Shown: positions 38,150 through 57,188, counted from the first letter of the stretch. The stretch is DNA of 64,000 nt from Bacilli bacterium (GCA_017528315.1 JAFXOW010000005.1:1986-65985); one strand, 5' to 3'. The notes: generated by a model from the sequence alone, not told the origin. Translations and numbers: made by a program.

Positions 38150-38258
38150 ATTTTGAATTTAATCGAATTTTTACCTAAAGTTCGATTTTAGTATATATTA
38201 TTATATTTAGTATCAAAAATATTTTGACTTTTATGTATACTTATGATATTATGTATTT

Positions 38259-38373
38259 GTTGAGAGGAATCTCATATAATAAAAAAGGGGAAATACTTAA
38301 CTTGCCTTGTTGAGTACTTACCCTATAAAATAGTGTTAGTACTTAATCTAATGCAGATTGAGTACTATTTTTT
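38259..38373 (+). ncRNA. Candidate cis-antisense sRNA (type I antitoxin), locus 1; ends approximate
   Basis: TTGACT(38224-38229)-17-TATTAT promoter, no ORF, strong terminator TAGTACTTAATCT/AGATTGAGTACTA plus T run at 38337-38373. Overlaps the 3' end of a minus-strand peptide gene. Confidence 0.62.
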
Positions 38374-38452
38374 ATTATTTGAATCAATTGAGAAACAATT
38401 AATAAAATGATTATTAATATTAGAAATAAGATTAGTAAATTTTTTTCTTCAT
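38343..38452 (-). pseudogene. Small hydrophobic peptide gene (candidate type I toxin, 36 aa) interrupted by a one-base frameshift in an A7 run
   Basis: Promoter TTGTAT-18-TGcTATAAT, SD AAGGAGG, ATG at 38452. With A8 it reads MKKKNLLILFLILIIILLIVSQLIQIIKNSTQSALD*; as sequenced it reads MKKKIY*. Confidence 0.6.
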
Positions 38453-38714
38453 AATATCAAGCCTCCTTCCTTTTAGAAGTCGGCAAGTACTCAACAGTCA
38501 GTATTTCCTGTAATCATTATAGCACATATTAAAATTATAATACAATACATTTTTGTCATTTTATAAAAATGTTTTTTTTATAATTATCATAAAAAATAAT
38601 GAATTATTTTATTGAATTTTTATTTTTTTACATTTTATTTACACAATACATAATTTGACATTTTACTTATTTATTATTCTTTGATATACTTATTATAAGA
38701 ATAGAGGTGGTAAA

Positions 38715-41700
38715 ATGAAAAAATATATAATAATTATTAATATATTATTCTTTTTATGCATCTTAAATACTAAGGCTTTAACTTATAACGAAATAAAGGG
38801 AAGAAGTGAATGTAATAATTTTGAAGTAGCTGAAGCTATGAGTGATAAAAGTTTAAAACATTATGAATGTTTTGATAATTATGATTATGCAAAAAGTTAT
38901 ATGAATAATAATAGCAATGAAAATTTAGTAATACTTGAAAGAAGTAATAATTTAACTAGAATAATAGATGCTAAACTTGCTCTTGTTTATATGGATATTG
39001 GAGAAGAACTAACTTATTATTATAAAAATAGTAATTTAACGGGTTATATAACTTATATGAATCATCAAGGAACTTATGGTGCAACTGATGGAGTATTTTT
39101 AGAATTAAATTATTCAAATCATGCAATAAAAATGAAAACTAATGGAGTAGTTGGATGGACTAGAGACGGTAATTATAAAATAATACCTCTTAATTTTGTA
39201 GGAACAACTAGTTACTATCAAGTAACTAATGATGAATTATTACATTATTATTCTAAGGATATACAGACTTCTTACTCAAGTTATGGAAGAGCTATTGATA
39301 AAAAACCAAATAGTCTAAATACTGGTAAATATTATAGTTATGATGGTAATTATTTTTATAATAATTTAAGAAGCTTAATGATCGATTATAAAAATGGAAA
39401 CTATAATAACAGTGTTAATCGTGATAATCCCTATTATAATTACTATATGTATCTACCTCATCGAGGAAGAAGTAATTATACAGCTGATGATATAGATGCC
39501 TATCTAAAGAATACTAAAAATTTAATTGGTACTATTTATGGAAAACAATATGTTTATAGATATTCCAATATGTATGGAACAGGAATTTTCTTTAAGTCTA
39601 GTGAAACTTTATATGGAGGAAATGCTATCTTAATGATGTCACTTGCAACTAATGAAAGTGCTTTAGGACAGAGTAGAATAGCTATTGACAAAAATAATTT
39701 ATTTGGACATGCAGCCTATGATTCAAGTGCTTACTCATCAGCAACCGGATATCTAAATCCTTATCAAAGTATAATTGGTCATGCTAAAAGTTATATTAAT
39801 TGTGGTTATGCTAATCCAAATGATTCAAGATATTATGGATCTAATATGGGTAATAAAAGTAGTGGCATGAATATTATGTATGCAAGTGATCCAGTTTGGG
39901 GAGAAAAAGCAGCTAATTATTATTACTTATTTGATAAAGATAATGGTTATTTAGATTATAATTATTATCAATTAGGAATTACTACTGTTGATAGTGTTAA
40001 TGTCAGAACAGAACCAAATCTTACAAGTAGTATTCCCTTTAATTTAAAACATGAGCGAGTTCCCGTTATAATTCTTGGAGAAGTAAATGGTACTAGTGTA
40101 AATGGTAGTACTAAATGGTATAAAATAGTAAGTGATGCTAATCTAACAGTTGATAGAACTAGTATTCAGAGTTGTAGTTATACGAATTACTATAATTATA
40201 ATTCTTATGTTTATGTTCATTCATCATTTATCAAAAAAATTAATACTTCTTCAAATGGTAAATACAATGATATAAATACTTTAAATGATAAAAATATTAA
40301 ATATCAAGAATATTCAAGTGGAGCATCTTATACTCCGAAAATTGGAAAAATTAAAAATGATACCTATGTCTATGATACAGCAACCATGAGTGTTAAAACT
40401 GGAAGTATAGCTAAAACTTCCACAATGGTTCCTGTTTTCATGGAAGCGTCAATCAATGGAAAAGTAGTAGCTTATTTAATTGAAACAGATTTTAGTAAAA
40501 ATCAAAAAGGTTGGATAGATGCATCGAGTTTAGAATTTATAACAAAAGATTTACTAAAAGTAAATGTTACAGCTAATGGTGATTATTTAAATGTTTTTAA
40601 TACTCCAGGTGGAAGTGTACTTGAAAGTATATATGATGGAACTTTTGCAGTTATTTTAGATAAAACAACTTATAATAATGAACTATGGTTAAAAATTAAT
40701 TATAATTTAAATAATGGAACTGCTTGGATAAATACTAATATTTCAAGTAGTAAAGGAAGTCTTGAATATACCTTAAATAATATTGGAAATAGTAAACCTG
40801 AAATAATTATTGAAGACTTAATGATGTTTAAAGGAGGAGAGATAAATCCTTTAGATCATGTAAGAGCTATTGATAATGAAGATGGAGATATTACTAATAA
40901 AGTTAAAATAACTAAAAATACTATTAATACAGACGTAATAGGTGAATATGAAGTTACTTTCCAAGTAACAGATTCAAATAATCAAACTGTAACTAAAACT
41001 ATTAAAGTTTATGTATTAGATTTTAAAGAAGGAGAACCACTTTTCTATTTTGAATCTTTAAAACATATAAGTGATACTAAATTTGAAGTTAAAGGATTTT
41101 TAGGTGTTAAAGGAATGGATAATACTACGATGAGTCATCAACTTGCTTTTGTAAACGAAGATGATGAAAATAAAGTATATTTATTTGATTTAGATGAAAA
41201 CTCAAATCCTCCATTTAAAATGTCAAGTTTAGATGATGATAAATCATATAATTATCAAGGTGGTTGGTTTAAAGGAGAAATAGATTTATCAAAAGCTAAT
41301 ATTCCTGAAGGAAATTATTATATTGCTGTATTTGCATATAACTATGAAACAGGTTATTATACAGTTGACTATTATACTAACATTGCATATCTTGATATGC
41401 CAAGAAGAATAAATGCAAGTAGTCGTGGGATATCCTTTGATATTGATTATGGATTACCAGATAGTCCAATGCTTGTTACTATAAGAAATAATGGACTACT
41501 TAGTTATGAAACACCAACATCTTTTGATCCAACTTATAATTTCTTTAATGAATTAAAGATTACTAATAATACTTTAAGTATTACAGGAACAAGTCATAGT
41601 GCTTATGTTTCATATTCTAAAACTGATGATGTAAAAAGAGAAATAGTTTTTGAAAATATTACTACTTATGAAAGATTTAATTATACTTTATCTTATATTG

Positions 41701-41960
41701 ATAATGGTCTATATAAAATAGAACTTCCTGTCAGTGATGGAAAAGATAAAACTAGAGCTTGGTTTAAAAAAGATATAGATATTAGTAATTTACCTCAAGG
41801 AAACTATACTATTTATATTAAAACAACATCTAATAATAAAACTTACTATGGTGAACTTGTTGATGTTGCTTATACTGATTTTTCGAAAATTAATACTTCC
41901 AAATACCAATTTAATAGAATAGATGAAAAACGTTTAAGGGTAGAATTAACTGTTAAATGA
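38715..41960 (+). CDS. Secreted GH73 endo-beta-N-acetylglucosaminidase (LytB-like autolysin) with SH3-like and Ig-like domains
   Basis: Signal peptide; LATNESALGQSRIAIDKNNLFGHAAYDS; YASDPVWGEK; VNVRTEP and WYKI (SH3b-like); A.DNEDGDIT...YQVTDS-like (DUF5011) segment. Confidence 0.8.
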   Translation: MKKYIIIINILFFLCILNTKALTYNEIKGRSECNNFEVAEAMSDKSLKHYECFDNYDYAKSYMNNNSNENLVILERSNNLTRIIDAKLALVYMDIGEELTYYYKNSNLTGYITYMNHQGTYGATDGVFLELNYSNHAIKMKTNGVVGWTRDGNYKIIPLNFVGTTSYYQVTNDELLHYYSKDIQTSYSSYGRAIDKKPNSLNTGKYYSYDGNYFYNNLRSLMIDYKNGNYNNSVNRDNPYYNYYMYLPHRGRSNYTADDIDAYLKNTKNLIGTIYGKQYVYRYSNMYGTGIFFKSSETLYGGNAILMMSLATNESALGQSRIAIDKNNLFGHAAYDSSAYSSATGYLNPYQSIIGHAKSYINCGYANPNDSRYYGSNMGNKSSGMNIMYASDPVWGEKAANYYYLFDKDNGYLDYNYYQLGITTVDSVNVRTEPNLTSSIPFNLKHERVPVIILGEVNGTSVNGSTKWYKIVSDANLTVDRTSIQSCSYTNYYNYNSYVYVHSSFIKKINTSSNGKYNDINTLNDKNIKYQEYSSGASYTPKIGKIKNDTYVYDTATMSVKTGSIAKTSTMVPVFMEASINGKVVAYLIETDFSKNQKGWIDASSLEFITKDLLKVNVTANGDYLNVFNTPGGSVLESIYDGTFAVILDKTTYNNELWLKINYNLNNGTAWINTNISSSKGSLEYTLNNIGNSKPEIIIEDLMMFKGGEINPLDHVRAIDNEDGDITNKVKITKNTINTDVIGEYEVTFQVTDSNNQTVTKTIKVYVLDFKEGEPLFYFESLKHISDTKFEVKGFLGVKGMDNTTMSHQLAFVNEDDENKVYLFDLDENSNPPFKMSSLDDDKSYNYQGGWFKGEIDLSKANIPEGNYYIAVFAYNYETGYYTVDYYTNIAYLDMPRRINASSRGISFDIDYGLPDSPMLVTIRNNGLLSYETPTSFDPTYNFFNELKITNNTLSITGTSHSAYVSYSKTDDVKREIVFENITTYERFNYTLSYIDNGLYKIELPVSDGKDKTRAWFKKDIDISNLPQGNYTIYIKTTSNNKTYYGELVDVAYTDFSKINTSKYQFNRIDEKRLRVELTVK

Positions 41961-42122
41961 GAATCTTAAATTGAAGCTGTACTAGTAATAAATATTAATA
42001 AGAGAAACTGATAAATATTAATTTTTATCAGTTTTTAAGTATTTTATTTGACATATTATAAACTTGTGTTATAATTTCAGATGTGGAATTATTATATATA
42101 AATGAAATAGAAGGAGAAGATT

Positions 42123-44561
42123 ATGTTAGAAATAAAAAATATAACTAAAATATATAAAACTAACGATTTAGAACAAATTGCTTTAAATAAAGTTAGTATT
42201 AATTTTCGAAAATGTGAATTTGTAAGTATTTTAGGCCCTAGTGGAAGTGGTAAGACAACTCTTTTAAATATTATTGGAGGACTAGACCATTATGATTCTG
42301 GGGATTTAATTATTAATGATATAAGTACAAAAGAATATAAAGATCGTGACTGGGATAGTTACAGAAATCATCGAATTGGTTTTGTTTTCCAAAGTTATAA
42401 TTTAATTGGACATCAAAGTGTTTTAAAAAATGTCGAACTTGCTTTAACTTTATCTGGTGTTTCGAAAAAGGAAAGAGTTCAAAAAGCTAAAAAGGCACTT
42501 GAAGTTGTTGGACTTAAGGAACATATGAATAAAAAACCTAATCAATTATCAGGTGGACAAATGCAAAGAGTAGCTATTGCTCGTGCTTTAGTAAATAATC
42601 CAGATATCTTACTTGCTGATGAACCAACAGGAGCTTTAGATAGTGAAACAAGTAAACAAATCATGGAACTATTAAAAAAAGTTGCAGATGAAAAATTAGT
42701 CATCATGGTAACTCATAATCCTGAATTAGCAATGGAATATTCTACCAGAATTGTTAAACTTAAAGATGGAAAGATAACAGATGACTCTAATCCTTATAAT
42801 GGACAAGAAGATACTAAAGATAATAAAGAAAATAAGAAAGCAAAAACTAAAAAAACATCGATGGGATTGTTGACGGCTTTAAGTTTATCTTTAAATAATT
42901 TAATGACTAAAAAAGGAAGAACTATATTAACAGCCTTTGCTGGTTCAATTGGAATAATAGGAATTGCTTTAATACTATCACTTTCTAATGGAGTCCAACA
43001 ATATATAAATAAAATGGAAAAAGAAACGTTAGCAAGTTATCCTTTATCAATAGAATCAAGTGCTATGGATTTAACTAACATGATGACTAATAGAGTAAGC
43101 GAAAATAAAGAAGAGGTTAAATGTAACAATGATTCAATATGTACTACTGATGATATTACTAGTAGTTTTGAACTTACATATGAAAGTTCTTTAGTAAAAA
43201 ATAATTTACAAGAATTTAAGAAAGCTTTAAATAATAATTATCAAGATATAAATAAATATGTAACAGATATTGGTTATTCTTATAACTTAGATTTACAAAT
43301 TTATAGTAAAAATAATATTCAAGTTAATCCAAGTACCTTTAAGATAGTTGAAAAAGATTCTACTGTAGAAAGTGGTTTTTCAATTACTAAAAGTGATTCT
43401 AGTGTATTTAAAGAACTAATTAATAATAATTCTTTACTTGAAGGTCAATATGATGTTTTAGCTGGTCATATACCAGAAAAATATAATGAATTAGTATTAA
43501 TTGTCGATAAAAATAATTCTATTCCAGCCAGTTTAATGTATACTTTAGATATAGAAGATAGAAATGAAGCAAAAGAAATAGTTAATAAATCTCTTAAAGA
43601 TAAAGATGCTAAATTAGAAAGTATAAATTATTTATATAATGATATAGTAGGAAATAAATTTAAATTATTACTAAATACTGATTATTATCAAAAGATTAAT
43701 GATATTTGGAAAGATAATCATAATGATGAAGCATTTTTAAAAGCCAAATTAGAAAATTGTGAAGAACTTGAAATAGTTGGAATTTTACGAATAAGTGATG
43801 ATGCCGTTGAGGCTGAAAGTGGTTTTATTGGTTATACTCATTCTTTAATGGAATATGTTATTAATAAAATAAGTGATACTGATATTGCTAAAGAACAATT
43901 AGCAAATGATACAAATGATATTATAACTAATATGCCTTTTAGTGATATGTATACTAAGGAAATGGCTTTAGAAAAATTAGGAGTATTCAATATAGATAAT
44001 CCAAGTACTATTTCAATATATCCAAAAGACTATGATGCCAAAGAAGAAATAATTAAAATAATAGGTTTATATAATAAAAATAATAGTGCTGAGAATAAAA
44101 TTACTTATGTTGATTATGTAGGAACACTTATGTCAGGAATTACAACTATTATAGATATTATAACGTATGTGCTTATTGCTTTTGTGGCTATTTCTTTAGT
44201 TGTATCAAGTATTATGATATCAATTATTACTTATATAAGTGTCTTAGAGCGCACTAAAGAAATAGGTATTTTAAGAGCAATTGGTGCAAGTAAAAAAGAT
44301 GTAACGAGAGTCTTTAATGCCGAAACAATAATTGAAGGATTTATTGCTGGAGTATTTGGAGTATTGGCAACTGTTCTTTTATGTTTACCAATTAATATAA
44401 TTGTAAATAGTTTAACTAATGTCAATAATATTGCTAAACTTCCAATTATGGGAGGAGTAAGTTTAATTATGATAAGTGTCTTTTTAACTTTAATAGCAGG
44501 TCTTATTCCATCACGAATTGCTAGTAAAAAAGATCCAGTAGAAGCATTAAGAACAGAATAA
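42123..44561 (+). CDS. MacB-like ABC transporter, ATPase-FtsX permease fusion
   Basis: GPSGSGKT, LSGGQMQRVAIARAL, ADEPTGALD, SVLERTKEIGILRAIGA. Confidence 0.9.
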   Translation: MLEIKNITKIYKTNDLEQIALNKVSINFRKCEFVSILGPSGSGKTTLLNIIGGLDHYDSGDLIINDISTKEYKDRDWDSYRNHRIGFVFQSYNLIGHQSVLKNVELALTLSGVSKKERVQKAKKALEVVGLKEHMNKKPNQLSGGQMQRVAIARALVNNPDILLADEPTGALDSETSKQIMELLKKVADEKLVIMVTHNPELAMEYSTRIVKLKDGKITDDSNPYNGQEDTKDNKENKKAKTKKTSMGLLTALSLSLNNLMTKKGRTILTAFAGSIGIIGIALILSLSNGVQQYINKMEKETLASYPLSIESSAMDLTNMMTNRVSENKEEVKCNNDSICTTDDITSSFELTYESSLVKNNLQEFKKALNNNYQDINKYVTDIGYSYNLDLQIYSKNNIQVNPSTFKIVEKDSTVESGFSITKSDSSVFKELINNNSLLEGQYDVLAGHIPEKYNELVLIVDKNNSIPASLMYTLDIEDRNEAKEIVNKSLKDKDAKLESINYLYNDIVGNKFKLLLNTDYYQKINDIWKDNHNDEAFLKAKLENCEELEIVGILRISDDAVEAESGFIGYTHSLMEYVINKISDTDIAKEQLANDTNDIITNMPFSDMYTKEMALEKLGVFNIDNPSTISIYPKDYDAKEEIIKIIGLYNKNNSAENKITYVDYVGTLMSGITTIIDIITYVLIAFVAISLVVSSIMISIITYISVLERTKEIGILRAIGASKKDVTRVFNAETIIEGFIAGVFGVLATVLLCLPINIIVNSLTNVNNIAKLPIMGGVSLIMISVFLTLIAGLIPSRIASKKDPVEALRTE

Positions 44562-44586
44562 ATTTATATAATTTAAGTTAAAGAAT

Positions 44587-44610
44587 AGGTCAAGAAATTG
44601 ACCTTTTTTT
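44587..44610 (+). terminator. Intrinsic terminator
   Basis: AGGTCAA-GAAA-TTGACCT followed by a T run. Confidence 0.78.
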
Positions 44611-44685
44611 TAAAATATATAAATTCAGACAATATTCTACATTATTCGACAAAAAAATATGCAATAATACACTTGAGGTGATTAA

Positions 44686-45924
44686 ATGAATATTATAATT
44701 GACTTAATAATAATTGTCTTTCCAATATCTTTATATCTTTTAAATATAGCTTATAACAATAATTATAAAAAAATATTGGATAAATATACTTTATCAATAA
44801 TTTTAATTTTTGAAACATTAATATTTATAATTTTCAGAGAAAGTCTTTCATCTTTAATACTAATTAATGTTCCACTTTTAATATCTTATTTAAAAAGATA
44901 TGAAGTAACAAGTATACTATTATCTATAATATTACTTTTATACTATACATTATTTTTTAAATATAATATATATTTTATCTTTTTAGAATATGTTTTATAT
45001 TTTGTAATCTATCTAATATTTAATAAAAAAGTCTTAAAAAAAGAATTATTATTATATATTTTTATCTTTATAAAAAGTATTATTTTATCAATAGAAATAT
45101 TTTATTTTAATATAAACAATAATTCATTTATTATAAATTTATTAAATATTACTTTTAAAATGTTATTATTTTATATATGTAGTTATTTTATTATTGTTTT
45201 TTTAGAAAGAGGAGAAGAAATAATGAATTTAAATACAGCAATAAAAGAATTAGAAAAAGAAAAAGTTTTGAGAACATCACTTTTTAAAATGACTCATGAA
45301 ATTAAAAATCCAATTGCTGTTTGTAAAGGATATTTAGATATGTTAGATATAAATGATAAAAGTAAATTAAATAAATATATTCCTATTATTAAAAGTGAAG
45401 TAGATAGGACTTTAACACTAATGGATGATTATTTAGAATATACTAAAATTAAGATTAATAAAGATATTACGGATATTTATATGTTACTTGATGAAGTAAT
45501 TAAATCATTAAAATTATATTTCAAAGAAAATAATATTACTTTAGAAAATAATATTCCAGATGATGAATTATATTTAAATATAGATTATAACAGGATTAAA
45601 CAAGTAATAGTTAATTTACTTAAAAATGCAAGTGAAGCTAGAGATGTTAGAAAAAGTGAAATGAAGATTAAAATAAGTACTAAAGTTTTAAAAAATAAAT
45701 TTTTAATTATCATAGAAGATAATGGAATAGGAATGGATAATGATACTTTAAATAATGTTACCAATTTATTTTTTACAACGAAAAGAAATGGAACAGGACT
45801 TGGTACTAGTTTATCAAAAGAAATTATAGAACTTCATGCTGGATCTTTAAAATATGATTCCCAATTAAATATTGGAACAAAAGTAATAATTACGTTACCT
45901 ATTGATAAAAATTTAAATAGTTGA
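44686..45924 (+). CDS. Orphan membrane sensor histidine kinase, KinB-like
   Basis: About 6 N-terminal TM segments starting IIIVFPISLY; H-box THEIKNP; N-box QVIVNLLKNA; DNGIGM; GTGLG. No adjacent response regulator. Confidence 0.8.
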   Translation: MNIIIDLIIIVFPISLYLLNIAYNNNYKKILDKYTLSIILIFETLIFIIFRESLSSLILINVPLLISYLKRYEVTSILLSIILLLYYTLFFKYNIYFIFLEYVLYFVIYLIFNKKVLKKELLLYIFIFIKSIILSIEIFYFNINNNSFIINLLNITFKMLLFYICSYFIIVFLERGEEIMNLNTAIKELEKEKVLRTSLFKMTHEIKNPIAVCKGYLDMLDINDKSKLNKYIPIIKSEVDRTLTLMDDYLEYTKIKINKDITDIYMLLDEVIKSLKLYFKENNITLENNIPDDELYLNIDYNRIKQVIVNLLKNASEARDVRKSEMKIKISTKVLKNKFLIIIEDNGIGMDNDTLNNVTNLFFTTKRNGTGLGTSLSKEIIELHAGSLKYDSQLNIGTKVIITLPIDKNLNS

Positions 45925-45962
45925 TTACTAATAAATATTTATTAGTAATTTTTCTTTTTCTC

Positions 45963-46012
45963 TTGACATATTAATTTATTGATTGTATTATTGTATTAAG
46001 CAAGTGATACAA
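45963..46012 (+). promoter_or_regulatory. sigmaA promoter with a probable YtrA-type operator
   Basis: TTGACA-17-TATTAT; inverted repeat TTGTAT(45991-45996)..ATACAA(46007-46012). Confidence 0.55.
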
Positions 46013-46027
46013 TGGAGATGATTTAAT

Positions 46028-47842: not shown

Positions 47843-47995
47843 AGAAATTAAGTAGAAATATTTAATTTTTTTTTTATAGTTTAAAATTTATAAGCAAGTA
47901 ATAATTTGTAAAAAGATGTCAAATTATTAAGTAGGTACTTGAATACTAATATTTATATATATATAATTAAATTGATAATAAAAGGAGGAGTAAAA

Positions 47996-49966
47996 ATGTC
48001 AAATAAAAAATTAATAATTTTTATAATAGCAACATTGTTATTAGTGGCAATAACCATAGGAGTAACCTATGCATTCTTTAGTTATACAAGAACTGGAAGT
48101 GCAAATACGATATCAGCCGGAAGAATTGTTTTTAATTCAGAACAAACAGATACAATATCATTAACAAATGCTTTTCCAATAACAAGAACTATGGCAGCAA
48201 CAGATACAACAAATACTGATGATGTAGTAATAACGATAAGTGGAGATACAACCTATGAAGGAGGAGTAGAATACTTAGTAACAGCAGTCGATGTAAGTAA
48301 TACAATCGGAAGTGGAGTAAATGAAAAAACAATACCAATAAGTGTAATAGCAACAGCAAGTAATATAGGAACTGCTGATGAAGAATATTTTGAACATCGT
48401 GGAACAAGTGCAAATAGTTCAATTTATAAAGTATTAGCTAATTCAACAATTGCTAATAACGACCAATTGTTAGTCGGATATATAAAGAGTGGAGTAACTG
48501 GAATAAATGGAAGTTTAACAATAAGAGCTTATCTAGATAGTGATTCAATAGCTATAAGTGATACCTATAATGGAACAAATACTCCAACAGATAGTATGGG
48601 AACAACTTCTGAATGGGTAAATGGAAGAACAGTATTAACAACAACTGAATGGAATAGCTTAAGAACAAATGGAGTATCATTTAAAGTAAAAGTAGAAGCA
48701 CAAGAAGGTACTTGGGTTGAGGAAGTGTTATCGGTTAATGTAATGAATAATTTTCCAGAAGAAATATTTGGTAGGGGATGGGATAGACCTGAAATAGTTA
48801 AGAATAACATTAAAGAAGTATACTTTAATAAAATGGGAGCAACTGCAATGCAAAATGCCTATGATGCAGCAACAATTAAAGCCGATTTAACATATAATAA
48901 TGAAGGAAAAGTATTAGCATGGTTAGAGGAAAATACAGATGATAACACAAAATACAATTTGATAATAGCAAGTGATGGAGAAACATATTTAACAACAGGG
49001 GAATATTTGTTTACTAATTTTAAAGGACTAGATAAAATAGAATTTAATAATGTCAATACAGATAGGGTAACGTCTATGTATGATATGTTTGCTAACTGTG
49101 AAAATTTAGAATATATTGATTTGTCAAATTTAGGTGGGAATAATTTGGTTACAACTAATTACATGTTTGGAAGTTGTTCAAAATTAAAAACAATAATTAT
49201 GGAAAATTTTAATTTCGGACAAGTTAATTTTAAAAATAATAATAATAATCAATATGCTTTTAATGGTCTTCAAGCATTAGAAACCGTCAATTTGACTAAT
49301 GCAGATTTTAGTAATGTAACAAGTGTATATGGATTGTTTGGAAATTGTACCAGTCTTACAACAGTAATTTTAGATGGTGCTGATACAAGTGGAATTATAG
49401 ATATGGAGTATATGTTTCAAAATTGTAGTAGTTTACAAAGTATAAATCTATCTGGATTAGGTGGCAATAATTTATCAGTAGTAAATAATTTATTTTATGG
49501 TTGTAATAATTTAACATCAATAGATATGTCTAATTTTAATTTTGGTATAGTTAATTTTAATAATAATTATTATAAAGCTTTTGCATATTTATCTAGTGTA
49601 GAAACGATAGATTTAACTAATGCTGATTTTAGAAATGTGACTAGCATGTATCAATTGTTTCGAAGCTGTACAAATCTTAAAATACTAATTCTAGATGGAA
49701 TAGATACAAGTAGTGTAACTAACATGACTTCAATGTTTCATGGTGATGCTTCTTTGGAAAAAATATATGTATCTAATTCATGGAATATTAACAATGTATC
49801 TAGTAGTGATAACATGTTTAATGGCTGCTCTTCTTTAGCAGGCCAAGCACCTAATACAACATATAGTTTTACAGATTATAGTACAGCAGATAAAACATAT
49901 GCTGTAATTGCTACTGATTCAACAGTTGGATATTTAACAGATATATCATTAAAACCCGCTAGTTAA
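47996..49966 (+). CDS. Surface protein with a SipW-type signal peptide and BspA/DUF285-like leucine-rich repeats
   Basis: GVTYAFFS after the hydrophobic core; repeated (V)TSMY.MF..C..L...DLS motifs. ATG at 47996 after AGGAGG. Confidence 0.78.
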   Translation: MSNKKLIIFIIATLLLVAITIGVTYAFFSYTRTGSANTISAGRIVFNSEQTDTISLTNAFPITRTMAATDTTNTDDVVITISGDTTYEGGVEYLVTAVDVSNTIGSGVNEKTIPISVIATASNIGTADEEYFEHRGTSANSSIYKVLANSTIANNDQLLVGYIKSGVTGINGSLTIRAYLDSDSIAISDTYNGTNTPTDSMGTTSEWVNGRTVLTTTEWNSLRTNGVSFKVKVEAQEGTWVEEVLSVNVMNNFPEEIFGRGWDRPEIVKNNIKEVYFNKMGATAMQNAYDAATIKADLTYNNEGKVLAWLEENTDDNTKYNLIIASDGETYLTTGEYLFTNFKGLDKIEFNNVNTDRVTSMYDMFANCENLEYIDLSNLGGNNLVTTNYMFGSCSKLKTIIMENFNFGQVNFKNNNNNQYAFNGLQALETVNLTNADFSNVTSVYGLFGNCTSLTTVILDGADTSGIIDMEYMFQNCSSLQSINLSGLGGNNLSVVNNLFYGCNNLTSIDMSNFNFGIVNFNNNYYKAFAYLSSVETIDLTNADFRNVTSMYQLFRSCTNLKILILDGIDTSSVTNMTSMFHGDASLEKIYVSNSWNINNVSSSDNMFNGCSSLAGQAPNTTYSFTDYSTADKTYAVIATDSTVGYLTDISLKPAS

Positions 49967-50088
49967 AAAATTGTTTTGATGAATTATATATAAATTATAA
50001 TAAATAAGAGAATTATATTAATAATTTTCTTTTTTTATGATATAATTTGTTTAGATATAAAATAATATTATATAAGAGGTATGTAGTA

Positions 50089-51621
50089 ATGAATTATAAG
50101 AAGATTAAAAGGGAAGCTTTTAAAAATGTTAAACATAATTATTTTAAAAGTGTTATAGTAGTTTTTATTTGTACAATTCTTTTAGCAGGAGGTATTAATT
50201 TATCTAGTAAGAATATTTTAAATATAGATTTAAAAAATGTTAAAAATATAGAAATATTAAATAATTCTTATAAATCTAATAGTGAAATATTAGATGAATT
50301 AGTAGAAAAAATACAAGATGAAAATATACGTGATGAAAATGTTGCTCGAAGAGTTACTCATGGTATTATATCAGTTGTAGTAAATGAAGTAACTACTACT
50401 AAATCATTTATGTTTAATATTATCAATAGTATTAATAAATTTTTAGGCGGACATGTATCTGTTGGTATTATAATTATTATTTCTAATATTTGTTTATTAT
50501 TTTTCAGAATTATTTTTGTATCGGTTATAGAAGTTGGAAGAAATCGTTTTTTCTTAGAAAGTAGAAGATATTTAAAAACTAATATAGATAGATTCTTATA
50601 TCCTTATAAAAAGAAAAAAACATTACATATAGCCAAAATATTATTTATTAAAAACTTATATTTATTTCTTTGGAGTTTTACAATAATTGGATTCTTTATT
50701 AAATATTATGAATATGCACTTATTCCTTATATTTTAGCTGAGAATCCTAATATTTCAAGGAAAGACGCTTTTAAATTATCTAAAGAATTAATGGATAAGG
50801 AAAAATTTAATTTATTTAAATTAGATTTACTATTATTAGTATATAAAATACCGGGAATATTTACGTTTAATTTAACTAATATATTCTTTGCTGATATTTA
50901 TGCTGGAACATTATATTCCGAATTTTATATGAATGTTAAAGAAGATAAGAAAAATATAGAAAATATTGATTTAATAAATGATGAATTATTAAATATTAAA
51001 GATATTAAAAATGAATCTTATCCTGATAATAATATAAAAAAACATTCTATTTTAAATATAAATTATTTACAAGAGTATGATTTAAATACTTATATCTTAT
51101 TTTTCTTTGCTTTTAGTATAGCAGGATGGCTTTGGGAAGTAATGCTTCATTTATTAATGTATGGTCGATTTGTTAATCGTGGTACTCTTCATGGACCGTG
51201 GATTCAAATATATGGTTTTGGTGGTATAGCTATTCTTTATTTACTGAGAAGATTTAGAAAAAGTCCAACTAATATGTTTTTATCGTCATTTATTCTCTGT
51301 GGTATTATAGAATACTCAACAGCTTGGTATTTAGAAACTTTTAAGCATTTAAAGTATTGGGATTATAGTGGTTATTTTCTAAATTTACATGGAAGAATAT
51401 GTTTGGAAGGATTAATTATATTTGGACTCGGAGGATGTGCTTTTACTTATATTTTAGCTCCAATTCTAGCTAATTTATTTAATAGATTAAGAACCCATAT
51501 AAAAAATGTTTTAGTTGCTATATTAATATTTATATTTAGTATAGATATGCTTTATTCAACTTTTATAAAACCAAATACGGGTAAGGGAATTAGTAGTCAA
51601 GTTATGGAAATAGATAAATAG
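50089..51621 (+). CDS. DUF975-like plus DUF1361/CmpB-like membrane fusion protein
   Basis: YALIPYILAENP in the N-terminal half; GWLWEV...RGTLHGPW...WDYS..LNLHGRICL in the C-terminal half. Confidence 0.7.
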   Translation: MNYKKIKREAFKNVKHNYFKSVIVVFICTILLAGGINLSSKNILNIDLKNVKNIEILNNSYKSNSEILDELVEKIQDENIRDENVARRVTHGIISVVVNEVTTTKSFMFNIINSINKFLGGHVSVGIIIIISNICLLFFRIIFVSVIEVGRNRFFLESRRYLKTNIDRFLYPYKKKKTLHIAKILFIKNLYLFLWSFTIIGFFIKYYEYALIPYILAENPNISRKDAFKLSKELMDKEKFNLFKLDLLLLVYKIPGIFTFNLTNIFFADIYAGTLYSEFYMNVKEDKKNIENIDLINDELLNIKDIKNESYPDNNIKKHSILNINYLQEYDLNTYILFFFAFSIAGWLWEVMLHLLMYGRFVNRGTLHGPWIQIYGFGGIAILYLLRRFRKSPTNMFLSSFILCGIIEYSTAWYLETFKHLKYWDYSGYFLNLHGRICLEGLIIFGLGGCAFTYILAPILANLFNRLRTHIKNVLVAILIFIFSIDMLYSTFIKPNTGKGISSQVMEIDK

Positions 51622-51674
51622 AAGAGCAATCTTCTATTTTTATATGATATAATATTTTAAGAAAGGAGAATTTT

Positions 51675-53000
51675 ATGGAACAAGGATCACTTTTTGAAGA
51701 ACCAGTAATGGAACCTTTAGCATCCAGGATGAGACCTCATGATTTATCAGAGTTTGTTGGTCAAAAACATTTGGTAGGAGATGGGAAAATACTAAGAAAA
51801 ATGATTGATAATGATAAATTATGTTCAATGATATTTTGGGGACCTCCGGGAGTTGGGAAAACAACTTTAGCTCGAATTATTGCATCCCATACCAAATCTA
51901 AATTTGTTACTTTTTCAGCTGTTACAAGTGGTATTAAAGAAATAAAAGAAGTAATGGAAAAAGCAGATCACTCGAGAAGTCTTGGTATTAGAACAATTGT
52001 CTTTATTGATGAAATACATCGTTTCAATAAAGCTCAACAAGATGCTTTTTTACCATATGTTGAAAAAGGGTCAATTATTTTAATAGGTGCAACTACAGAA
52101 AATCCTTCTTTTGAAGTAAATAATGCTTTGCTTTCCAGATGCCGAGTATTTGTTTTAAAAGAACTTGATAAGAATGATATTTATGAGTTACTTAAAAGAA
52201 GTGTAACTGATAAAAGAGGGTATCCAGATTTAGAAATTAAAATAAGTGATAAGATATTAAAGACAATTGCTGATATTTCTAATGGGGATGCGAGAAGTGC
52301 TTTAACAACTCTCGATATGGTAATAATGAACTCTGATATTGATGAAGATAAAGTTACAGTAACGAAAGAAAATTTAGAAGAAAGTATTTCTCGAAAAAGT
52401 TTACTTTATGATAAAAATGGTGAAGAACATTATAATATAATTTCAGCTTTACATAAATCAATGCGTAATAGTGATCCGGATGCAGCCATCTATTGGCTTT
52501 CTCGAATGATGTCTTCCGGGGAAGACCCTTTATATATAGCTAGACGTATTGTAAGATTTGCATCAGAGGATATTGGACTTGCTGATACTAATGCTTTAAA
52601 TGTTGCCATAAATGTATATCAAGCTTGTCATTTTTTAGGTATGCCTGAATGTAATGTTCATTTAACGGAAGCTGTTATTTATATGTCTTTGGCACCTAAA
52701 TCAAATGCTTGTTATATGGCTTGTGAAGATGCTTTAATCGATTCTCATAATACCATGTCTGAACCAGTTCCTTTAATAATTAGAAATGCTCCTACTAAAT
52801 TAATGAAAGATTTAAACTATGGTGCAGGTTATAAATATGCTCATGACTCGAAAAATAAATTAACTACTATGGAATGCCTTCCTGATTCTTTAATTGGAAG
52901 AATTTACTATAAACCAACGGAAATGGGTAATGAGATTAAATTTAAAGAAAGATTAGAAAGAATTAAAAAATGGAAAAGAGAACATAGAGATATAAAGTAA
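51675..53000 (+). CDS. rarA: Replication-associated recombination AAA+ ATPase RarA/MgsA
   Basis: PLASRMRP, WGPPGVGKTT, DEIHRFNKAQQD, SALHKSMRNSD. Confidence 0.93.
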   Translation: MEQGSLFEEPVMEPLASRMRPHDLSEFVGQKHLVGDGKILRKMIDNDKLCSMIFWGPPGVGKTTLARIIASHTKSKFVTFSAVTSGIKEIKEVMEKADHSRSLGIRTIVFIDEIHRFNKAQQDAFLPYVEKGSIILIGATTENPSFEVNNALLSRCRVFVLKELDKNDIYELLKRSVTDKRGYPDLEIKISDKILKTIADISNGDARSALTTLDMVIMNSDIDEDKVTVTKENLEESISRKSLLYDKNGEEHYNIISALHKSMRNSDPDAAIYWLSRMMSSGEDPLYIARRIVRFASEDIGLADTNALNVAINVYQACHFLGMPECNVHLTEAVIYMSLAPKSNACYMACEDALIDSHNTMSEPVPLIIRNAPTKLMKDLNYGAGYKYAHDSKNKLTTMECLPDSLIGRIYYKPTEMGNEIKFKERLERIKKWKREHRDIK

Positions 53001-53071
53001 ATTTTATATGTAAACTATCTTTACTTTATTAAATATACTTTGTAAAATATAACTTGAAAGAAGGATTATAG

Positions 53072-53965
53072 ATGACTATTAAAGAAGCACATAATTTTTA
53101 TACGCAAGATGAAATGAGATATGATATTATGACAAATAAAGAATTCTTATTATGGTATAATAACTTAATAAATAATGGATATATATCATATATGAATACC
53201 TTAGATATTCAAGAGTTAATTAATAATTTAGTTAATTGGTATGAAATAAAATATCCCGAAAAAGAATTTGAAAAGGATAATGGAATAAATTATCCTGATT
53301 ATAAAAATTTAGATAATTTAGCAAAATATATGACATTTGATCAGTTATTATATAGATTATCAAATAAAGAAATTAGTATACTAAAGTGTCCTTATAGAAC
53401 GGGATGTGGGGGATTTTATTATAATAAAGAGTTAGAAAAAGATGTACCTTGTTCATTAGTTTATTTTAATAGAATAAATACAAGTGAAGAAAGACCATTA
53501 TTTTATAGAGATACCTATAATTTTGAAATAGATTCTTTAACAGGAAAAGTTATTTATAAATTAAATTTACCAAAAGAGTTACGAAATGATAATTATAATA
53601 TAGAAGATTTATATAAAAAATTAAAAAGTTTAGATGAATATAATTTAAAAGAAATAGAAAAATGCTTAAAACATAAAAAATATGATGAGTTACTTAGAAA
53701 TAAGATATTAGAGCTTACAGTTTTAAAAATTTTATATTCTAAGAATACTATTCCCGAATATGGCTATAAAAGAGCCAGAATTTTTATTGATGAATTTAAT
53801 CAAGAATTAAATCTAAATTTAAGTAAAAGTGAAATTGATCTTATAATGATGAAAGATTATTCTATTAATAAAGAAAATATGCCTTTAAATGAAAATGAAT
53901 TAAAAAGCATGATAAAAAATAGAAAAAGAATGATTAAAGAAATTAAAAGAAATAGTAAATATTAA
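53072..53965 (+). CDS. Hypothetical protein
   Basis: 297-aa open frame with SD; no motif recognised. Confidence 0.6.
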   Translation: MTIKEAHNFYTQDEMRYDIMTNKEFLLWYNNLINNGYISYMNTLDIQELINNLVNWYEIKYPEKEFEKDNGINYPDYKNLDNLAKYMTFDQLLYRLSNKEISILKCPYRTGCGGFYYNKELEKDVPCSLVYFNRINTSEERPLFYRDTYNFEIDSLTGKVIYKLNLPKELRNDNYNIEDLYKKLKSLDEYNLKEIEKCLKHKKYDELLRNKILELTVLKILYSKNTIPEYGYKRARIFIDEFNQELNLNLSKSEIDLIMMKDYSINKENMPLNENELKSMIKNRKRMIKEIKRNSKY

Positions 53966-53982
53966 GTACCATATAATTTAAT

Positions 53983-54366
53983 ATGGATTATAATGAAAAA
54001 ATAGATAAATTAAAAGATTTAAAAATAGAAGAATTTGTTTGGATTATTTATATTGGTATTATTATTTTTAGTTTTTATTCTAATTCTTTAGAAAGAAAAT
54101 ATATTTTATATAATGATATGAAAAGTAAAGAAAAGTATCGAGTTACTTTAATAATTATTTTTTCTATTTTATGTATTATATATTATTATTTTTTAAAAGA
54201 TTCTTATGAATCAGTTCAAGAATTAAATATATTTGATACTTTAAATAAAAAGAATTTAACATATTTATCATTTTTAGCTTCTTTACTTATTTTTATAAGT
54301 GGTGTAATATTTTTATATATTGCCTTTAGTGATGAATCATTGGATGTTGAAATTGCATTTAATTAA
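53983..54366 (+). CDS. Hypothetical 3-TM membrane protein
   Basis: Three hydrophobic segments. Confidence 0.6.
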   Translation: MDYNEKIDKLKDLKIEEFVWIIYIGIIIFSFYSNSLERKYILYNDMKSKEKYRVTLIIIFSILCIIYYYFLKDSYESVQELNIFDTLNKKNLTYLSFLASLLIFISGVIFLYIAFSDESLDVEIAFN

Positions 54367-54391
54367 AATAAAACTAATTGTTGGAGGAATT

Positions 54392-54973
54392 ATGTACAAA
54401 CAAATTGATAATAATGGATTAGTAAATTTAAATTTATATGAGGGATATTCACATACTAAATATAGTAACTTATCAAATAATAATTATGAAAGCACTAGAA
54501 CTTCAAGGTATAAAGATATTGTTTATACTGATGGAACTGTTAAAATATTAGAGGAAATAGAAGTTAATGATTTAGATAATTTACCTAATGATTTAACAAC
54601 TGAAGAAATAGAAAAAGTAAAACAGATTTATCATGAAAATTTTTATATAGATGAAGTAGTAGTAAAGAGAATTCAGATTGAAAATGCTAACTTTTATATT
54701 GAAACAGAATTAAGTAAGGTATTAGCAATGATAGGAAAAACATGTGGTTGGTTTTGGTCTATAGAGAATATGCAAGTTAATGTTAAAGAACCTACAACTA
54801 GTAAGACTTTAAAGACAATTAAAACTACTATTAAATTAATTAATAATAAAAAATCTCAAAGTAATACACGGATATTTAAAAGTATAATTCAAAGTCATAT
54901 TTTAAATTCCGTTGAATATATAAAAAGTTATCAAAATATTTATCAATTAAAAGATAGAATTAAGAAAATTTAA
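54392..54973 (+). CDS. Hypothetical protein
   Basis: ATG after GGAGG at 54392; no motif recognised. Confidence 0.55.
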   Translation: MYKQIDNNGLVNLNLYEGYSHTKYSNLSNNNYESTRTSRYKDIVYTDGTVKILEEIEVNDLDNLPNDLTTEEIEKVKQIYHENFYIDEVVVKRIQIENANFYIETELSKVLAMIGKTCGWFWSIENMQVNVKEPTTSKTLKTIKTTIKLINNKKSQSNTRIFKSIIQSHILNSVEYIKSYQNIYQLKDRIKKI

Positions 54974-55005
54974 TTAATTATTGCATATAGTTAATTGGTG
55001 ATAAA

Positions 55006-55263
55006 TTGTATAATATAAATGATGCTTTGTATGTAAAAGATAAATTAAATTTAACTTTTAATAAATTTACTATTAATGATTTGCTTAATGGTATGAATAT
55101 TGAAAGTGAACATGGACTTGTTAATCCTTTAACTAATGTAACAGATGATGATTTAATTAAAACAGCTAAGATTGCTCTTGCTCATTTAAATGAATTTCCT
55201 AATTATTACAATGAGCTATATGGTTTAAAGAAATTTGAGGAATTTTTAAAGAAAAAATTATAA
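55006..55263 (+). CDS. DUF5661-like small protein
   Basis: GMNIESEHG...TNVTDDD..KTAKIALAHLNEFPNYY. TTG start. Confidence 0.65.
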   Translation: MYNINDALYVKDKLNLTFNKFTINDLLNGMNIESEHGLVNPLTNVTDDDLIKTAKIALAHLNEFPNYYNELYGLKKFEEFLKKKL

Positions 55264-55505
55264 AAAACTTAACATTTATTATTTTTTGTGATATATTATT
55301 AGCACATAAGTAATTATTTTATATGTTTTGCATATAATACTTATGCTACAATGTAGTAAAAAAAGCAGGTGAAGCCAGCCTTAAATGGCAGCTAAAAGAG
55401 TGAGATTAGAAATTATTTTCTGAAATCTTTTTCAAAATGGCAGATTAAGTATATACTATTTGCTATTTTTATTATATAATTATTTAGGAAGTTGGTAGTA
55501 TAAAT

Positions 55506-56543
55506 ATGTATACAATATATGATTATTTAAAGTATTATAAAGATTATAGTTTAAAAGATTTAAAATGGAATGTTATGGATAATTTATTATTATCTTGTCT
55601 TGTTTATATGCCTCTTAAATCTTTTGAATATAAAGATTATAAGACATTAATTTCTGAAATACTAGAAAGTAACGTTAAAGATATTAAAGATTTAATGGTA
55701 CCTAAAACTTTAGAAATAGCTAGTATTATTAAAGAATCTAAGAGATATCAGAATATGAAATTTTATAATTTTATTAATCAAGTAAATAGTAAAACTCAAT
55801 TTGGAGCTATAACAGTTGTTTTAGATAATATAAAAATAATTACTTTTAGAGGTAGTGATAGAAGTGTCATTGGATGGCTTGAAAATTTTAGAATTGCATA
55901 TCTTTATCCAACCTACACTCAACAAGTAGCAATTGATTATTTAAATAATAATATTAATTTATTTGATAATAATGTTTATATATGTGGTCATTCTAAGGGT
56001 GGTAATCTCTCAATTGTAAGTGCTATGGAATTACCAAGTTTTAAATTGAGAAAAATAAAAAATATTTATAATTTTGATGGACCAGGAGTAAGACATGAAG
56101 AATTTGAATCTTTAAAATATAAACGTATAAAATCTAAAATTGTTAATATAATACCAACTAGTTCCTATGTAGGTGCTCTTTTATATAATGAGAATTATTA
56201 TGTTGTAAAAACAAGTGCTCATGCTATAAATGTTCATTATCCAATATATTGGAATATTTTTGGAATAGAATTTGTTAAAGGAAACTTATCTAAGTCTAGC
56301 CTGGGATTAATTAAAGGAACGACAACTAATTTAGATAAAGTACCAAAAGATAAATTACAGGAAGTATTGGAAGAATCATTTAAAATATTTAAAAAAAGAG
56401 AAACTAATAATATTAAATTAACGCTTAATGATTTAAAAAATATTGTTAAAAATATAAGTAAGATGGATCCTGAAATATCCAAATATGTATCTTTGATTTT
56501 TTCCAGTATTATTAATATAAGAGAGAAAAATAATGAAAAATGA
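55506..56543 (+). CDS. DUF2974 (Mbeg1-like) alpha/beta hydrolase
   Basis: FRGSD..VIGWLENF, GHSKGGNL, FDGPG. Confidence 0.82.
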   Translation: MYTIYDYLKYYKDYSLKDLKWNVMDNLLLSCLVYMPLKSFEYKDYKTLISEILESNVKDIKDLMVPKTLEIASIIKESKRYQNMKFYNFINQVNSKTQFGAITVVLDNIKIITFRGSDRSVIGWLENFRIAYLYPTYTQQVAIDYLNNNINLFDNNVYICGHSKGGNLSIVSAMELPSFKLRKIKNIYNFDGPGVRHEEFESLKYKRIKSKIVNIIPTSSYVGALLYNENYYVVKTSAHAINVHYPIYWNIFGIEFVKGNLSKSSLGLIKGTTTNLDKVPKDKLQEVLEESFKIFKKRETNNIKLTLNDLKNIVKNISKMDPEISKYVSLIFSSIINIREKNNEK

Positions 56544-56769
56544 ACTTATTAAAAAAATAGATAAAATTCATACAACTAGTCTTGGAATGAAAAGAATTAA
56601 AACAAATCTTAACATAGAAGCAAGTGGAGTAGATTATTGTAAAAATATTCTATTAAACGAAGATTCAATTGTTTATAAGAATGGTAAAAATTATTATTTA
56701 AAATATAATAATATTCTTTTTACAATTAATAGTTTTAGTTATACTATAATAACTGCCCATATTATTTAA
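56533..56769 (+). CDS. DUF3781-like small protein
   Basis: HTTSLGMKRIKTNL...GKNYY...TINSFSYTIITAH. Confidence 0.65.
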   Translation: MKNELIKKIDKIHTTSLGMKRIKTNLNIEASGVDYCKNILLNEDSIVYKNGKNYYLKYNNILFTINSFSYTIITAHII

Positions 56770-56814
56770 TTATTATTTGCTGTATCAAAAGATATTTGAC
56801 TTATATATGTATTT

Positions 56815-56933
56815 GTCAAGGAAACTTGCATGAAATAAAAATGGAAACATTCAGTTTTGGTATGCTGAATGTCTACCCAATAAAATGGTGAAGACATTTA
56901 ATCTATTAGTGATAGATTAGATGTCATTTTTTT
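56815..56933 (+). ncRNA. Candidate cis-antisense sRNA (type I antitoxin), locus 2; 5' end approximate
   Basis: 5' hairpin CAAG-GAAA-CTTG; 14-bp terminator stem GACATTTAATCTAT/ATAGATTAGATGTC plus T7 at 56893-56933. Convergent with a peptide gene. The -35 element is poorly defined. Confidence 0.55.
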
Positions 56934-57016
56934 ATTACTACTATCATAATGATAAGGAAAAATAAAATGATAGCAATGAATTTTAGAACTTTTATAATAA
57001 AAGCCTTAGTTTTCAT
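56924..57016 (-). CDS. Small hydrophobic peptide (candidate type I toxin), 30 aa
   Basis: SD GAAGGGAG, ATG at 57016, MKTKAFIIKVLKFIAIILFFLIIMIVVIKK*; intact. Below the ORF-track length cutoff. Confidence 0.72.
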   Translation of the reverse strand: MKTKAFIIKVLKFIAIILFFLIIMIVVIKK

Positions 57017-57188
57017 CTTATCAAATCTCCCTTCTTTTAAAATGGAAGGTAGACATCCCGCAACTGACGTTTCCATAAGATATATATTACATACTAATTA
57101 TACATTGCAAGTCATTTATGTTATTTTTGCAAATATAATTTTTTAATTTTTTAAATTTATTGTATAATAGAATGGAAAGGAATCTTAT

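Follow-up and report, generated by a model that had tools for sequence, protein, structure and literature searches.

What are the two similar intergenic units that lie far apart in a single stretch of the genome of the Bacilli bacterium represented by assembly GCA_017528315.1? The 64,000-nucleotide stretch analysed here (JAFXOW010000005.1:1986-65985; hereafter the window) has a G+C content of about 24%, and nearly all of its genes lie on the plus strand. The two units, L1 (about 38224-38545) and L2 (about 56796-57124), are intergenic, lie on the minus strand and can be aligned with each other over about 360 nt; they are separated by 18.5 kb, and their toxin units both run against the otherwise uniform gene direction. 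It is probable that each locus is a type I toxin-antitoxin (TA)-like module that belongs to a large family in low-GC gut Bacillota. Such a reading had been proposed in an initial annotation of the window, and it is supported by sequence comparison, namely by covariation in the putative toxin mRNA, by a coding signal in its small open reading frame (ORF) and by the lack of matches in the family libraries searched, with the toxin and antitoxin roles being predicted ones.

Every feature listed in the initial annotation can be seen at both minus-strand loci, and motifs and folds alike go beyond what chance would give. The window contains precisely two copies of the composite Shine-Dalgarno (SD)/start motif AAAAGRARGGAGNNTTGATANNATGAA, at 38448-38474 and 57012-57038, against a shuffle expectation of 0.00, and GTATCAAAARATATTTGACTT also occurs twice, both times within L1 and L2 (expected 0.04). 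The two occurrences of ATGTATTTGT are not significant alone (expected 0.7; 11 of 100 shuffles give at least two); what matters is its equal placement in both loci, at the end of the antisense -10 box and the discriminator, rather than its count. A putative mRNA starting near GGAAA (38508 in L1, 57074 in L2) is seen 6-7 nt past a -10-like box, an anti-SD hairpin is predicted at both loci (CUUCU/GGAAG in L1, CUUCC/GGGAG in L2), and the annotated bipartite long-range inverted repeat takes the form of a 5'-3' helix that closes both mRNA folds. The stop codon of the peptide lies at the stem edge of the antisense terminator, both in L2 (56926-56924) and, for the ancestral stop TAG, in L1 (38367-38365), and an antisense RNA that opens with a small hairpin and an A-rich linker is predicted at both loci with z about -5. 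Pattern and nhmmer scans give these two copies only and no third one in the window.

The predicted unit consists of a sigma-A-type promoter followed by an mRNA of about 230 nt, in which the first ~27 nt pair with the last ~35 nt. The L2 mRNA folds at -67.2 kcal/mol (z = -8.0), including the bipartite 5'-3' helix, and the L1 mRNA, in which the 5' segment GGAAAUACUGACUGUUGAGUACUUGCC pairs with the 3' end, folds at -64.1 kcal/mol (z = -7.0), with none of 200 shuffles being as good in either case. The SD of L1 is GGAGG (38466-38462), while in L2 the anti-SD CUUCC (57048-57044) faces the SD GGGAG (57031-57027) and UUGAUAagAUGA pairs with the ORF-internal UCAUUUUAUU. Compensatory changes, which the initial annotation had suggested looking for in the 5'-3' helix, are abundant. 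Across 16 mRNAs, RNAalifold yields 42 pairs with 95.8% of the cells paired and double (compensatory) changes in 18 pairs; none of 500 shuffles is as high, and slid controls give 1-4. For 60 distinct mRNAs, 52 pairs hold 377 double-changed cells, compared with 133 +/- 16 in shuffled and 33-68 in slid controls, and the long-range helices are 96-97% paired with double changes in 14 of 20 pairs. The 31 G-U cells of the long-range helix, against only 9 A-C cells, show that selection acts on it as toxin-strand RNA. Covariation is also seen in the hairpin common to both RNAs, the shared terminator; its 135 Watson-Crick, 2 G-U and 3 A-C cells make it nearly purely Watson-Crick, which is what an element predicted to work in both directions needs.

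Translation of this message appears to be occluded by its own structure. The start region UUGAUAnnAUGA, already pointed out in the initial annotation, pairs with the ORF-internal UCAUUUUAUU, which would account for its conservation at the nucleotide level, and in the more divergent subtype D the AUG is predicted to be sequestered analogously via other sequences. Folding of full-length mRNAs predicts an SD and an AUG that are mostly paired (with median unpaired probabilities of about 0.04 and 0.02, respectively) and a fully paired 5' end. When the 3' 95 nt are blocked in the folding, as they would be in a duplex with the antisense RNA, the SD stays closed and the 5' end opens to 0.2-0.8.

The ORF itself encodes peptides of 25-30 aa that are hydrophobic and Lys-flanked, with N-terminal Lys/Arg and, in most cases, a C-terminal KK, and that are predicted to be single-helix membrane peptides. 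In 12 distinct 30-codon ORFs the length and the stop are conserved, variable sites are distributed 20/15/25 over the three codon positions, exchanges are of the K/R and I/L/V/F kind, and the ratio of nonsynonymous to synonymous variation (pN/pS) is 0.42; judged by these sequences, the ORF evolves as coding sequence under purifying selection. A small (<60 aa) hydrophobic ORF with a ribosome-binding site, as looked for in type I TA systems, is found in L2 (30 aa behind GGGAG) and in the relatives (25-30 aa), and it is broken in L1.

The break in L1 is a frameshift. All relatives read ATGAAGAAAAAAGATTTA..., translated MKKKDLLISFLILIIILLIV..., and the loss of a single G has turned the AAAAAAGATTTA of the relatives into AAAAAAATTTA, leaving an A7 run at 38440-38446 and destroying the hydrophobic ORF. 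It is not an assembly error because contigs from independent metagenome runs carry the identical A7-run sequence. The site now reads G AAA AAA A, and a -1 slip there would bring back the hydrophobic frame. A programmed -1 frameshift at this run was considered and is unsupported: the relatives are all in frame with GAT, and a second 1-nt loss breaks the frame in the C-terminal A-run of L1. On account of this second loss, L1 reads as a toxin pseudogene rather than as a programmed shift, and hence would form no functional TA pair, with its consensus promoters and RNA structure being kept. The peptides of the two loci had been annotated as divergent, and this holds for their subtypes (B in L1, A in L2), but L1 itself now retains only the remnant MKKKIY.

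The putative antisense RNA is about 115 nt long, convergent with the mRNA and fully complementary to the final 2-3 codons and the entire 3' untranslated region (UTR), including the 3' strand of the closing helix, such that the two RNAs share one hairpin, the antisense terminator. In 23 aligned copies an antisense -35 element is followed by a spacer of ~17 nt, a TG-extended -10 element and, ~7 nt further on, the 5' hairpin, whose stem covaries (CAAG/CUUG, GAGA/UCUC, GCAAA/UUUGC, UAGGA/UCCUA) below a loop that is usually GAAA or GGAA. The A-rich linker behind this hairpin is the complement of the terminal U-run of the mRNA. Although the 5' hairpin lies outside the overlap with the mRNA, no other segment is as conserved across subtypes. 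The type I hallmark of an antisense RNA with its own promoter and terminator is thus seen here as a prediction, and the L2 promoter is non-canonical: L2 is without the 16 nt (spacer and -10) between the antisense -35 and -10 that are present in L1, in L024 and in other relatives, and the promoter scan gives no canonical plus-strand promoter for the L2 antisense RNA. Upstream of this RNA lies a DUF3781 gene (56533-56769, plus strand), with no terminator between the two. The L2 antisense RNA may be supplied by read-through from a co-oriented upstream gene, and it is conceivable that such a supply explains why the damaged antisense promoter is tolerated at L2. As for the toxin promoters, the simple promoter scan does not list that of L1, and near the L2 toxin start it lists only an alternative ATAACA-16-TATAAT.

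Divergence of the repeats had been thought to insulate the two pairs from each other. L1 and L2 belong to different subtypes, and the predicted duplexes are strong for cognate pairs (-152 to -155 kcal/mol) and weak for non-cognate pairs (-45 to -47 kcal/mol), the longest shared run being 8 nt, which is consistent with insulation. Pairing could plausibly nucleate at two sites: between the central-hairpin loop of the antisense RNA and a 7-10-nt internal loop of the 5'-3' lock, to which it is complementary, and between the mutually complementary loops of the shared hairpin. Homologues are represented in metatranscriptome contigs: one contig from mouse gut, 229 nt long, covers a homologue from about +9 to the terminator U-run, and a locus of the L025 type was found in several RNA runs, which carry no strand information. 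The antisense 5' hairpin together with the -10 element (...TTTTATGCAAGTTTCCTTGACATATTCATAAT...; 3384-3455 in L025 and its equivalents in all subtypes) is the most multicopy piece of the unit, at 10-35x the single-copy depth in DNA-like runs. In RNA runs the antisense 5' depth is 10-80x that of the flanks, and this was discarded as a sign of expression: the depth reflects copy number rather than expression, since unlabelled, DNA-like runs show the same profile. The DNA runs of the window itself have their pile-up on another segment.

Are the two loci alone, or do they represent a family? The initial annotation took them for members of a paralogous, diversified family, and relatives with the same architecture do occur, at 21 loci in GTDB genomes and at 67 or more in metagenomes. 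When GTDB species genomes were scanned with the SD/start pattern, 27 loci came up, of which 21 are true relatives, hosted by low-GC gut metagenome-assembled genomes (MAGs) labelled Bacilli, Tenericutes, Erysipelotrichaceae, Firmicutes CAG:822 or Clostridia and by a few low-GC contigs in higher-GC taxa. A hidden Markov model of the mRNA (nhmmer) finds 31 copies in the genome-scan loci. Some stand in tandem, two or three to an array, and others have decayed through 5' truncation, loss of the SD or an interruption; chromosomal type I TA systems typically show both tandem arrays and decayed toxin copies. A metagenome scan with the antisense 5' hairpin (TGCAAGTTTCCTTGACA) adds at least 81 further matches in at least 67 loci, as well as two more divergent subtypes. 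There are at least five peptide subtypes, and the mRNAs of subtypes D and E cannot be aligned with those of A-C; in 8 of 9 cases their predicted fold has the same closed architecture. The expectation that the genome holds more copies is therefore borne out in part, by further relatives elsewhere, and for this genome it is shown only at the metagenome level. Between species, the homology begins at the mRNA +1 (median 0) and ends ~40 nt past the mRNA 3' end, at the antisense -10, and the flanking genes of the copies are unrelated.

Five of the scanned loci have labels that sit oddly with their base composition. The family contigs in bins labelled Muribaculaceae (L005, L007, L013 and L022) and Vescimonas coprocola (L027) have 27-29% G+C; both taxa are presumably much higher in G+C, and these contigs look like mis-binned Bacilli contigs. 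At L025, contigs in several runs skip the whole mRNA (~272-282 nt; joints 3110/3113/3116 to 3385-3393) or its 3' 102 nt (3289 to 3391/3392), and upstream of many toxin promoters lies a degenerate copy of the antisense promoter region (GTGTGTTTACTAAATTGTCAAAA). Together, the skipping contigs and the degenerate promoter copies point to recombination between flanking repeats as the way in which units come and go.

Multicopy units of ~270 bp with an inverted repeat near both ends, inserted in unrelated contexts and often found at contig ends, could also be miniature inverted-repeat transposable elements (MITEs) or other transposon remnants whose terminal inverted repeats mimic the 5'-3' helix, an alternative that the initial annotation had raised itself. 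We reject it because of the unit boundaries, the covariation and the asymmetry in G-U pairs. Far from being constant, the repeats covary from copy to copy, and the excess of G-U over A-C cells means that they pair only as RNA of one strand, that of the toxin. Conservation is asymmetric: on one side it continues for ~40 nt past the 3' repeat, as far as the antisense hairpin and its -10 element, and on the other it ends at the mRNA +1, so that the homologous segment is the transcribed unit. The aligned flanks show no target-site duplication at the repeat ends, the unit contains a selected ORF, and there is no transposase or systematic integrase nearby, which leaves a mobile-element origin of the repeats very improbable. 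Less easily set aside, and still unlikely in our judgement, is a conserved small membrane-protein gene whose peptide is benign, modulating a membrane complex for instance, and whose cis-antisense RNA merely tunes it. The purifying selection on the ORF (pN/pS as given above) and the fact that the L2 ORF is intact despite its damaged antisense promoter would suit such a gene, and the toxic role is one that is read from sequence here. However, the multicopy and tandem organisation fits selfish or toxic modules, and type I TA systems already known, far better, and a benign role is also at odds with the rapid diversification into at least five subtypes, the frequent ORF-dead or truncated copies in which the antisense parts are intact, the three layers of translational occlusion and the insertion in unrelated genomic contexts.

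Several points weigh against the TA reading itself. Toxicity and neutralisation are predictions from sequence, as are expression levels and transcript ends, and the depth profile in RNA runs is matched by that in probable DNA runs. L2 combines an intact toxin ORF with a non-canonical antisense promoter, which is awkward for a strict TA system. The start-codon helix is near-invariant within subtypes A-C, so covariation is no test of it there. Moreover, folding predicts no further closure of the SD upon antisense binding, and because SD closure is unchanged, control of translation by the antisense RNA is not supported and only a decay model is.

In the decay model that we propose for these type I TA-like modules, the closing helix would protect both ends of the mRNA, and the message would be stable and poorly translated. 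The antisense RNA would nucleate via the loop of its central hairpin or of its terminator on complementary unpaired loops of the mRNA, and the two RNAs would then zip into a duplex of ~90 bp that could be cut by a double-strand RNase, being an RNase III-type substrate. The cut would free (unmask) the 5' end of the mRNA and expose it to 5'-dependent decay. Since it is the cutting of the duplex that would drive the decay of the mRNA, the peptide would be made only when the supply of antisense RNA fails, and it would then damage the membrane. Divergent helix and UTR sequences would insulate the subtypes from each other.

Has this family been described before? Rfam 15, which the initial annotation had recommended searching, gives no relevant match in L1 or L2 at E up to 10. 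Only tRNA reaches the gathering score in the window, and at 12 other loci only tRNA and one T-box do. Pfam-A and NCBIfam, the toxin content of which is unsurveyed, return no toxin family at E up to 10 for subtypes A-E, their sole matches being hydrophobic-stretch noise far below the cut-offs. The five peptide subtypes have no match in PHROGs or PADLOC, and phage and plasmid collections give no blastn or tblastn match under a low-complexity filter that may mask the subtype A peptide. A pattern scan of IMG/VR returned two chance matches, neither of them a family member. Searching the 30-aa toxin with phmmer against 1.84e9 representative proteins finds none, and a 50-aa extended ORF has one match in 5.8e9 proteins. 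That ORF callers miss the family, as had been surmised, agrees with two assemblies in which nothing is called in the L2 intergenic region and with protein libraries that hold essentially nothing of it. Literature searches by topic and by peptide string found no description of the family. It is possible that it nevertheless belongs to an already described type I TA family beyond the libraries used, in T1TAdb or among the predictions of Fozo et al. (2010): T1TAdb and TADB were not among the databases compared, short hydrophobic peptides carry little sequence signal, and the layout is that of TxpA/RatA, BsrG/SR4 and the Clostridioides difficile systems with their convergent, 3'-overlapping antisense RNAs. 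We hold this to be quite unlikely given the absence of any Rfam, Pfam, NCBIfam, PHROGs, PADLOC, phage or plasmid match, the failure to find the peptide strings in 8.3 million papers and the hosts, which are uncultured MAG lineages absent from the genomes behind T1TAdb.

The closest likeness in layout is to TxpA/RatA, BsrG/SR4 and BsrE/SR5 of Bacillus subtilis, in which convergent genes, a 3'-overlapping antisense RNA and a small hydrophobic peptide with a charged C terminus recur, the 3'-overlap being the layout of Gram-positive type I TA systems as summarised in the T1TAdb paper and in a Clostridia review. For these systems, as in our proposal, degradation of the duplex is presumed to be the main mode of action. 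The family differs from all three in having no sequence or model match to them, in its shorter peptides (25-30 aa) and in an mRNA closed by a covarying 5'-3' helix, which to our knowledge these systems lack; its copies also lie in chromosomal housekeeping contexts and beside tRNA genes, whereas those of the TxpA/BsrG type lie in prophages. The type I systems of C. difficile (CD2517.1-RCd8, CD0956.2-RCd10 and others) likewise are convergent overlapping pairs of a low-GC gut Firmicute, with many paralogues and with toxins whose N-terminal part is hydrophobic, whose C terminus is rich in Lys and which were unannotated before RNA-seq. However, their toxins are 34-59 aa long and lie in prophages or beside CRISPR arrays, and the Clostridia review reports neither tRNA linkage nor a 5'-3' lock for them.

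The par system of Enterococcus faecalis pAD1 (Fst/RNAI-RNAII) shares with the family the convergent RNAs, the bidirectional terminator hairpin with loops as candidate first contacts, a 5' structure that protects the toxin mRNA and a multicopy occurrence in Firmicutes. The RNAs of par interact through direct repeats that lie at their 5' ends and are not part of the overlap, whereas in the family the complementarity is the overlap itself, and the family peptides lack what we take to be the Pro/Gly motif of Fst-type toxins. In hok/Sok of plasmid R1 and AapA1/IsoA1 of Helicobacter pylori, the full-length toxin mRNA is locked by a 5'-3' interaction with its SD sequestered, and is stable and translationally inert; for hok, the long-distance lock was reportedly described by Franch and colleagues in 1997. 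The family has such a long-distance lock, here supported by covariation, which is a functional resemblance and not a sequence relation. The antisense RNAs of hok and AapA1 target the 5' or translation-initiation region and are fully contained in the mRNA, activation occurs by 3' trimming and the hosts are Gram-negative, whereas the antisense RNA of the family covers the 3' strand of the lock itself. We know of no described family that combines a 3'-overlapping antisense layout with a hok/AapA1-like 5'-3' lock. Among the systems compared, which do not include T1TAdb and TADB, the modules thus apparently form a new family or variant of type I TA.

A further peculiarity is the placement of the modules. 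A tRNA gene lies beyond the mRNA 3' end in 25 of 89 copies (28%), at a distance of 73-170 nt in 24 and of 262 nt in one, and all 25 lie on the strand of the antisense RNA and shortly precede its promoter; the background density is 64 tRNAs per 992 kb. The linked tRNAs are Thr, Glu, Arg, Lys, Phe, Leu and Ala, and the loci concerned include L1, L008, L014, L015, L025, L141 and 19 more. On the antisense side, 48 of 68 copies have a nearest ORF that is directed into the module, co-directionally with the antisense RNA, compared with 25 of 53 on the toxin side (25 vs 28, no bias), where the neighbour is a recombinase or integrase in one of 10 tRNA-linked copies. One hypothesis for this placement is a supply of antisense RNA by read-through. 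The genes between and around L1 and L2 are housekeeping genes (glucosaminidase, ABC transporters, histidine kinase, MgsA, copper ATPase, PcrA). An island spanning the 18.5 kb between the loci was considered and dismissed, given these genes, the absence of an integrase there and a tRNA 3' end that is not repeated. The window also encodes a 675-aa protein (47939-49966) with DUF285 ('Mycoplasma protein of unknown function') and leucine-rich repeats, and cell-wall genes for a glucosaminidase (38715-41960) and an LD-carboxypeptidase (34678-35685), which fits a Mollicutes-related low-GC Bacilli host that has retained its wall genes.

Positions of predicted features at L1 and L2 (window coordinates) and peptides of the five subtypes
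Feature	Position	Strand	Basis and details
tRNA-Glu(CTC)	38074-38149	+	Upstream of L1 antisense RNA, same strand; ARAGORN and Rfam
L1 antisense promoter	38224-38252	+	TTGACT, 17 nt, TATTAT, TG before second hexamer; promoter scan 10/12 matches; aligns with family promoter
L1 antisense RNA, predicted, ~116 nt	38259-38374	+	Fold -34.5 kcal/mol, z -5.4; nhmmer match 38214-38386
L1 antisense RNA, parts			5' hairpin GAGA-GGAA-UCUC, A-rich linker, central hairpin, terminator 38337-38367 (terminator scan) and U-run
L1 toxin-type mRNA, predicted, subtype B	38281-38508	-	Fold z -7.0; nhmmer 38508-38282, E 1e-38; covariation
L1 remnant ORF MKKKIY*	38432-38452	-	Ancestral 29-aa ORF (MKKKDLLISFLILIIILLIV...) broken by 1-nt loss
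L1 toxin promoter	38516-38545	-	TTGTAT, 18 nt, TGcTATAAT (extended -10), 7 nt before GGAAA; read from sequence; position conserved in family
L2 antisense promoter remnant	56796-56807	+	TTGACT directly abutting TATATA; alignment
L2 antisense RNA, predicted, ~119 nt	56815-56933	+	Fold -32.7 kcal/mol, z -4.8; nhmmer 56804-56952
L2 antisense RNA, parts			5' hairpin CAAG-GAAA-CUUG, A-rich linker, central hairpin, terminator 56893-56925 (terminator scan) and U-run
L2 toxin mRNA, predicted, subtype A	56835-57074	-	Fold z -8.0; nhmmer E 7.5e-56; RNAalifold and pair counts
L2 toxin ORF, 30 aa	56924-57016	-	MKTKAFIIKVLKFIAIILFFLIIMIVVIKK; 12 distinct 30-codon orthologues; stop overlaps edge of antisense terminator stem
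L2 toxin promoter region	57081-57124	-	TTGCAA ... TATATA/TAATAT; read from sequence; weaker consensus match than L1
Subtype A peptide			MKTKTFIIKVLKLIAIILFLLIIMIVVIKK
Subtype B peptide			MKKKDLLISFLILIIILLIVSLMILCIKK
Subtype C peptide			MNKKDFLILSLVIIIFLLIALLFT..
Subtype D peptide			MTKREFSLFIIILLLFLVVIILLLK
Subtype E peptide			MRK.E..L..IIILLIIVILIILIKIVPTV

Type I TA systems are thought to be taxonomically narrow, largely because they are hard to find (PMC12390103). The family described here would add hundreds of copies in rabbit, mouse, ruminant and human gut metagenomes, in lineages known only as MAGs, and it is absent from protein and RNA family libraries. It would combine in one family two regulatory logics that were described separately before, and its naturally insulated subtypes may be useful for studies of antisense specificity or as orthogonal RNA devices. 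Intergenic stretches that seem 'empty' in such MAGs, and many of their contig breaks, would be TA repeats. Linkage to tRNA genes is a new peculiarity that lends itself to testing. We tentatively propose, as a possibility that we consider less than even, that the modules form a so far undescribed superfamily, very abundant in uncultured low-GC gut Bacilli, with a modular antisense RNA in which a constant promoter and 5' hairpin, common to at least five subtypes, are joined to a fast-diverging targeting part that mirrors the lock. Their placement downstream of, and co-oriented with, tRNA or other transcribed genes would then be functional, with read-through feeding the antitoxin and the shared hairpin terminating the neighbour. 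If this is true, the toxin would be coupled to transcription at the flanking locus.

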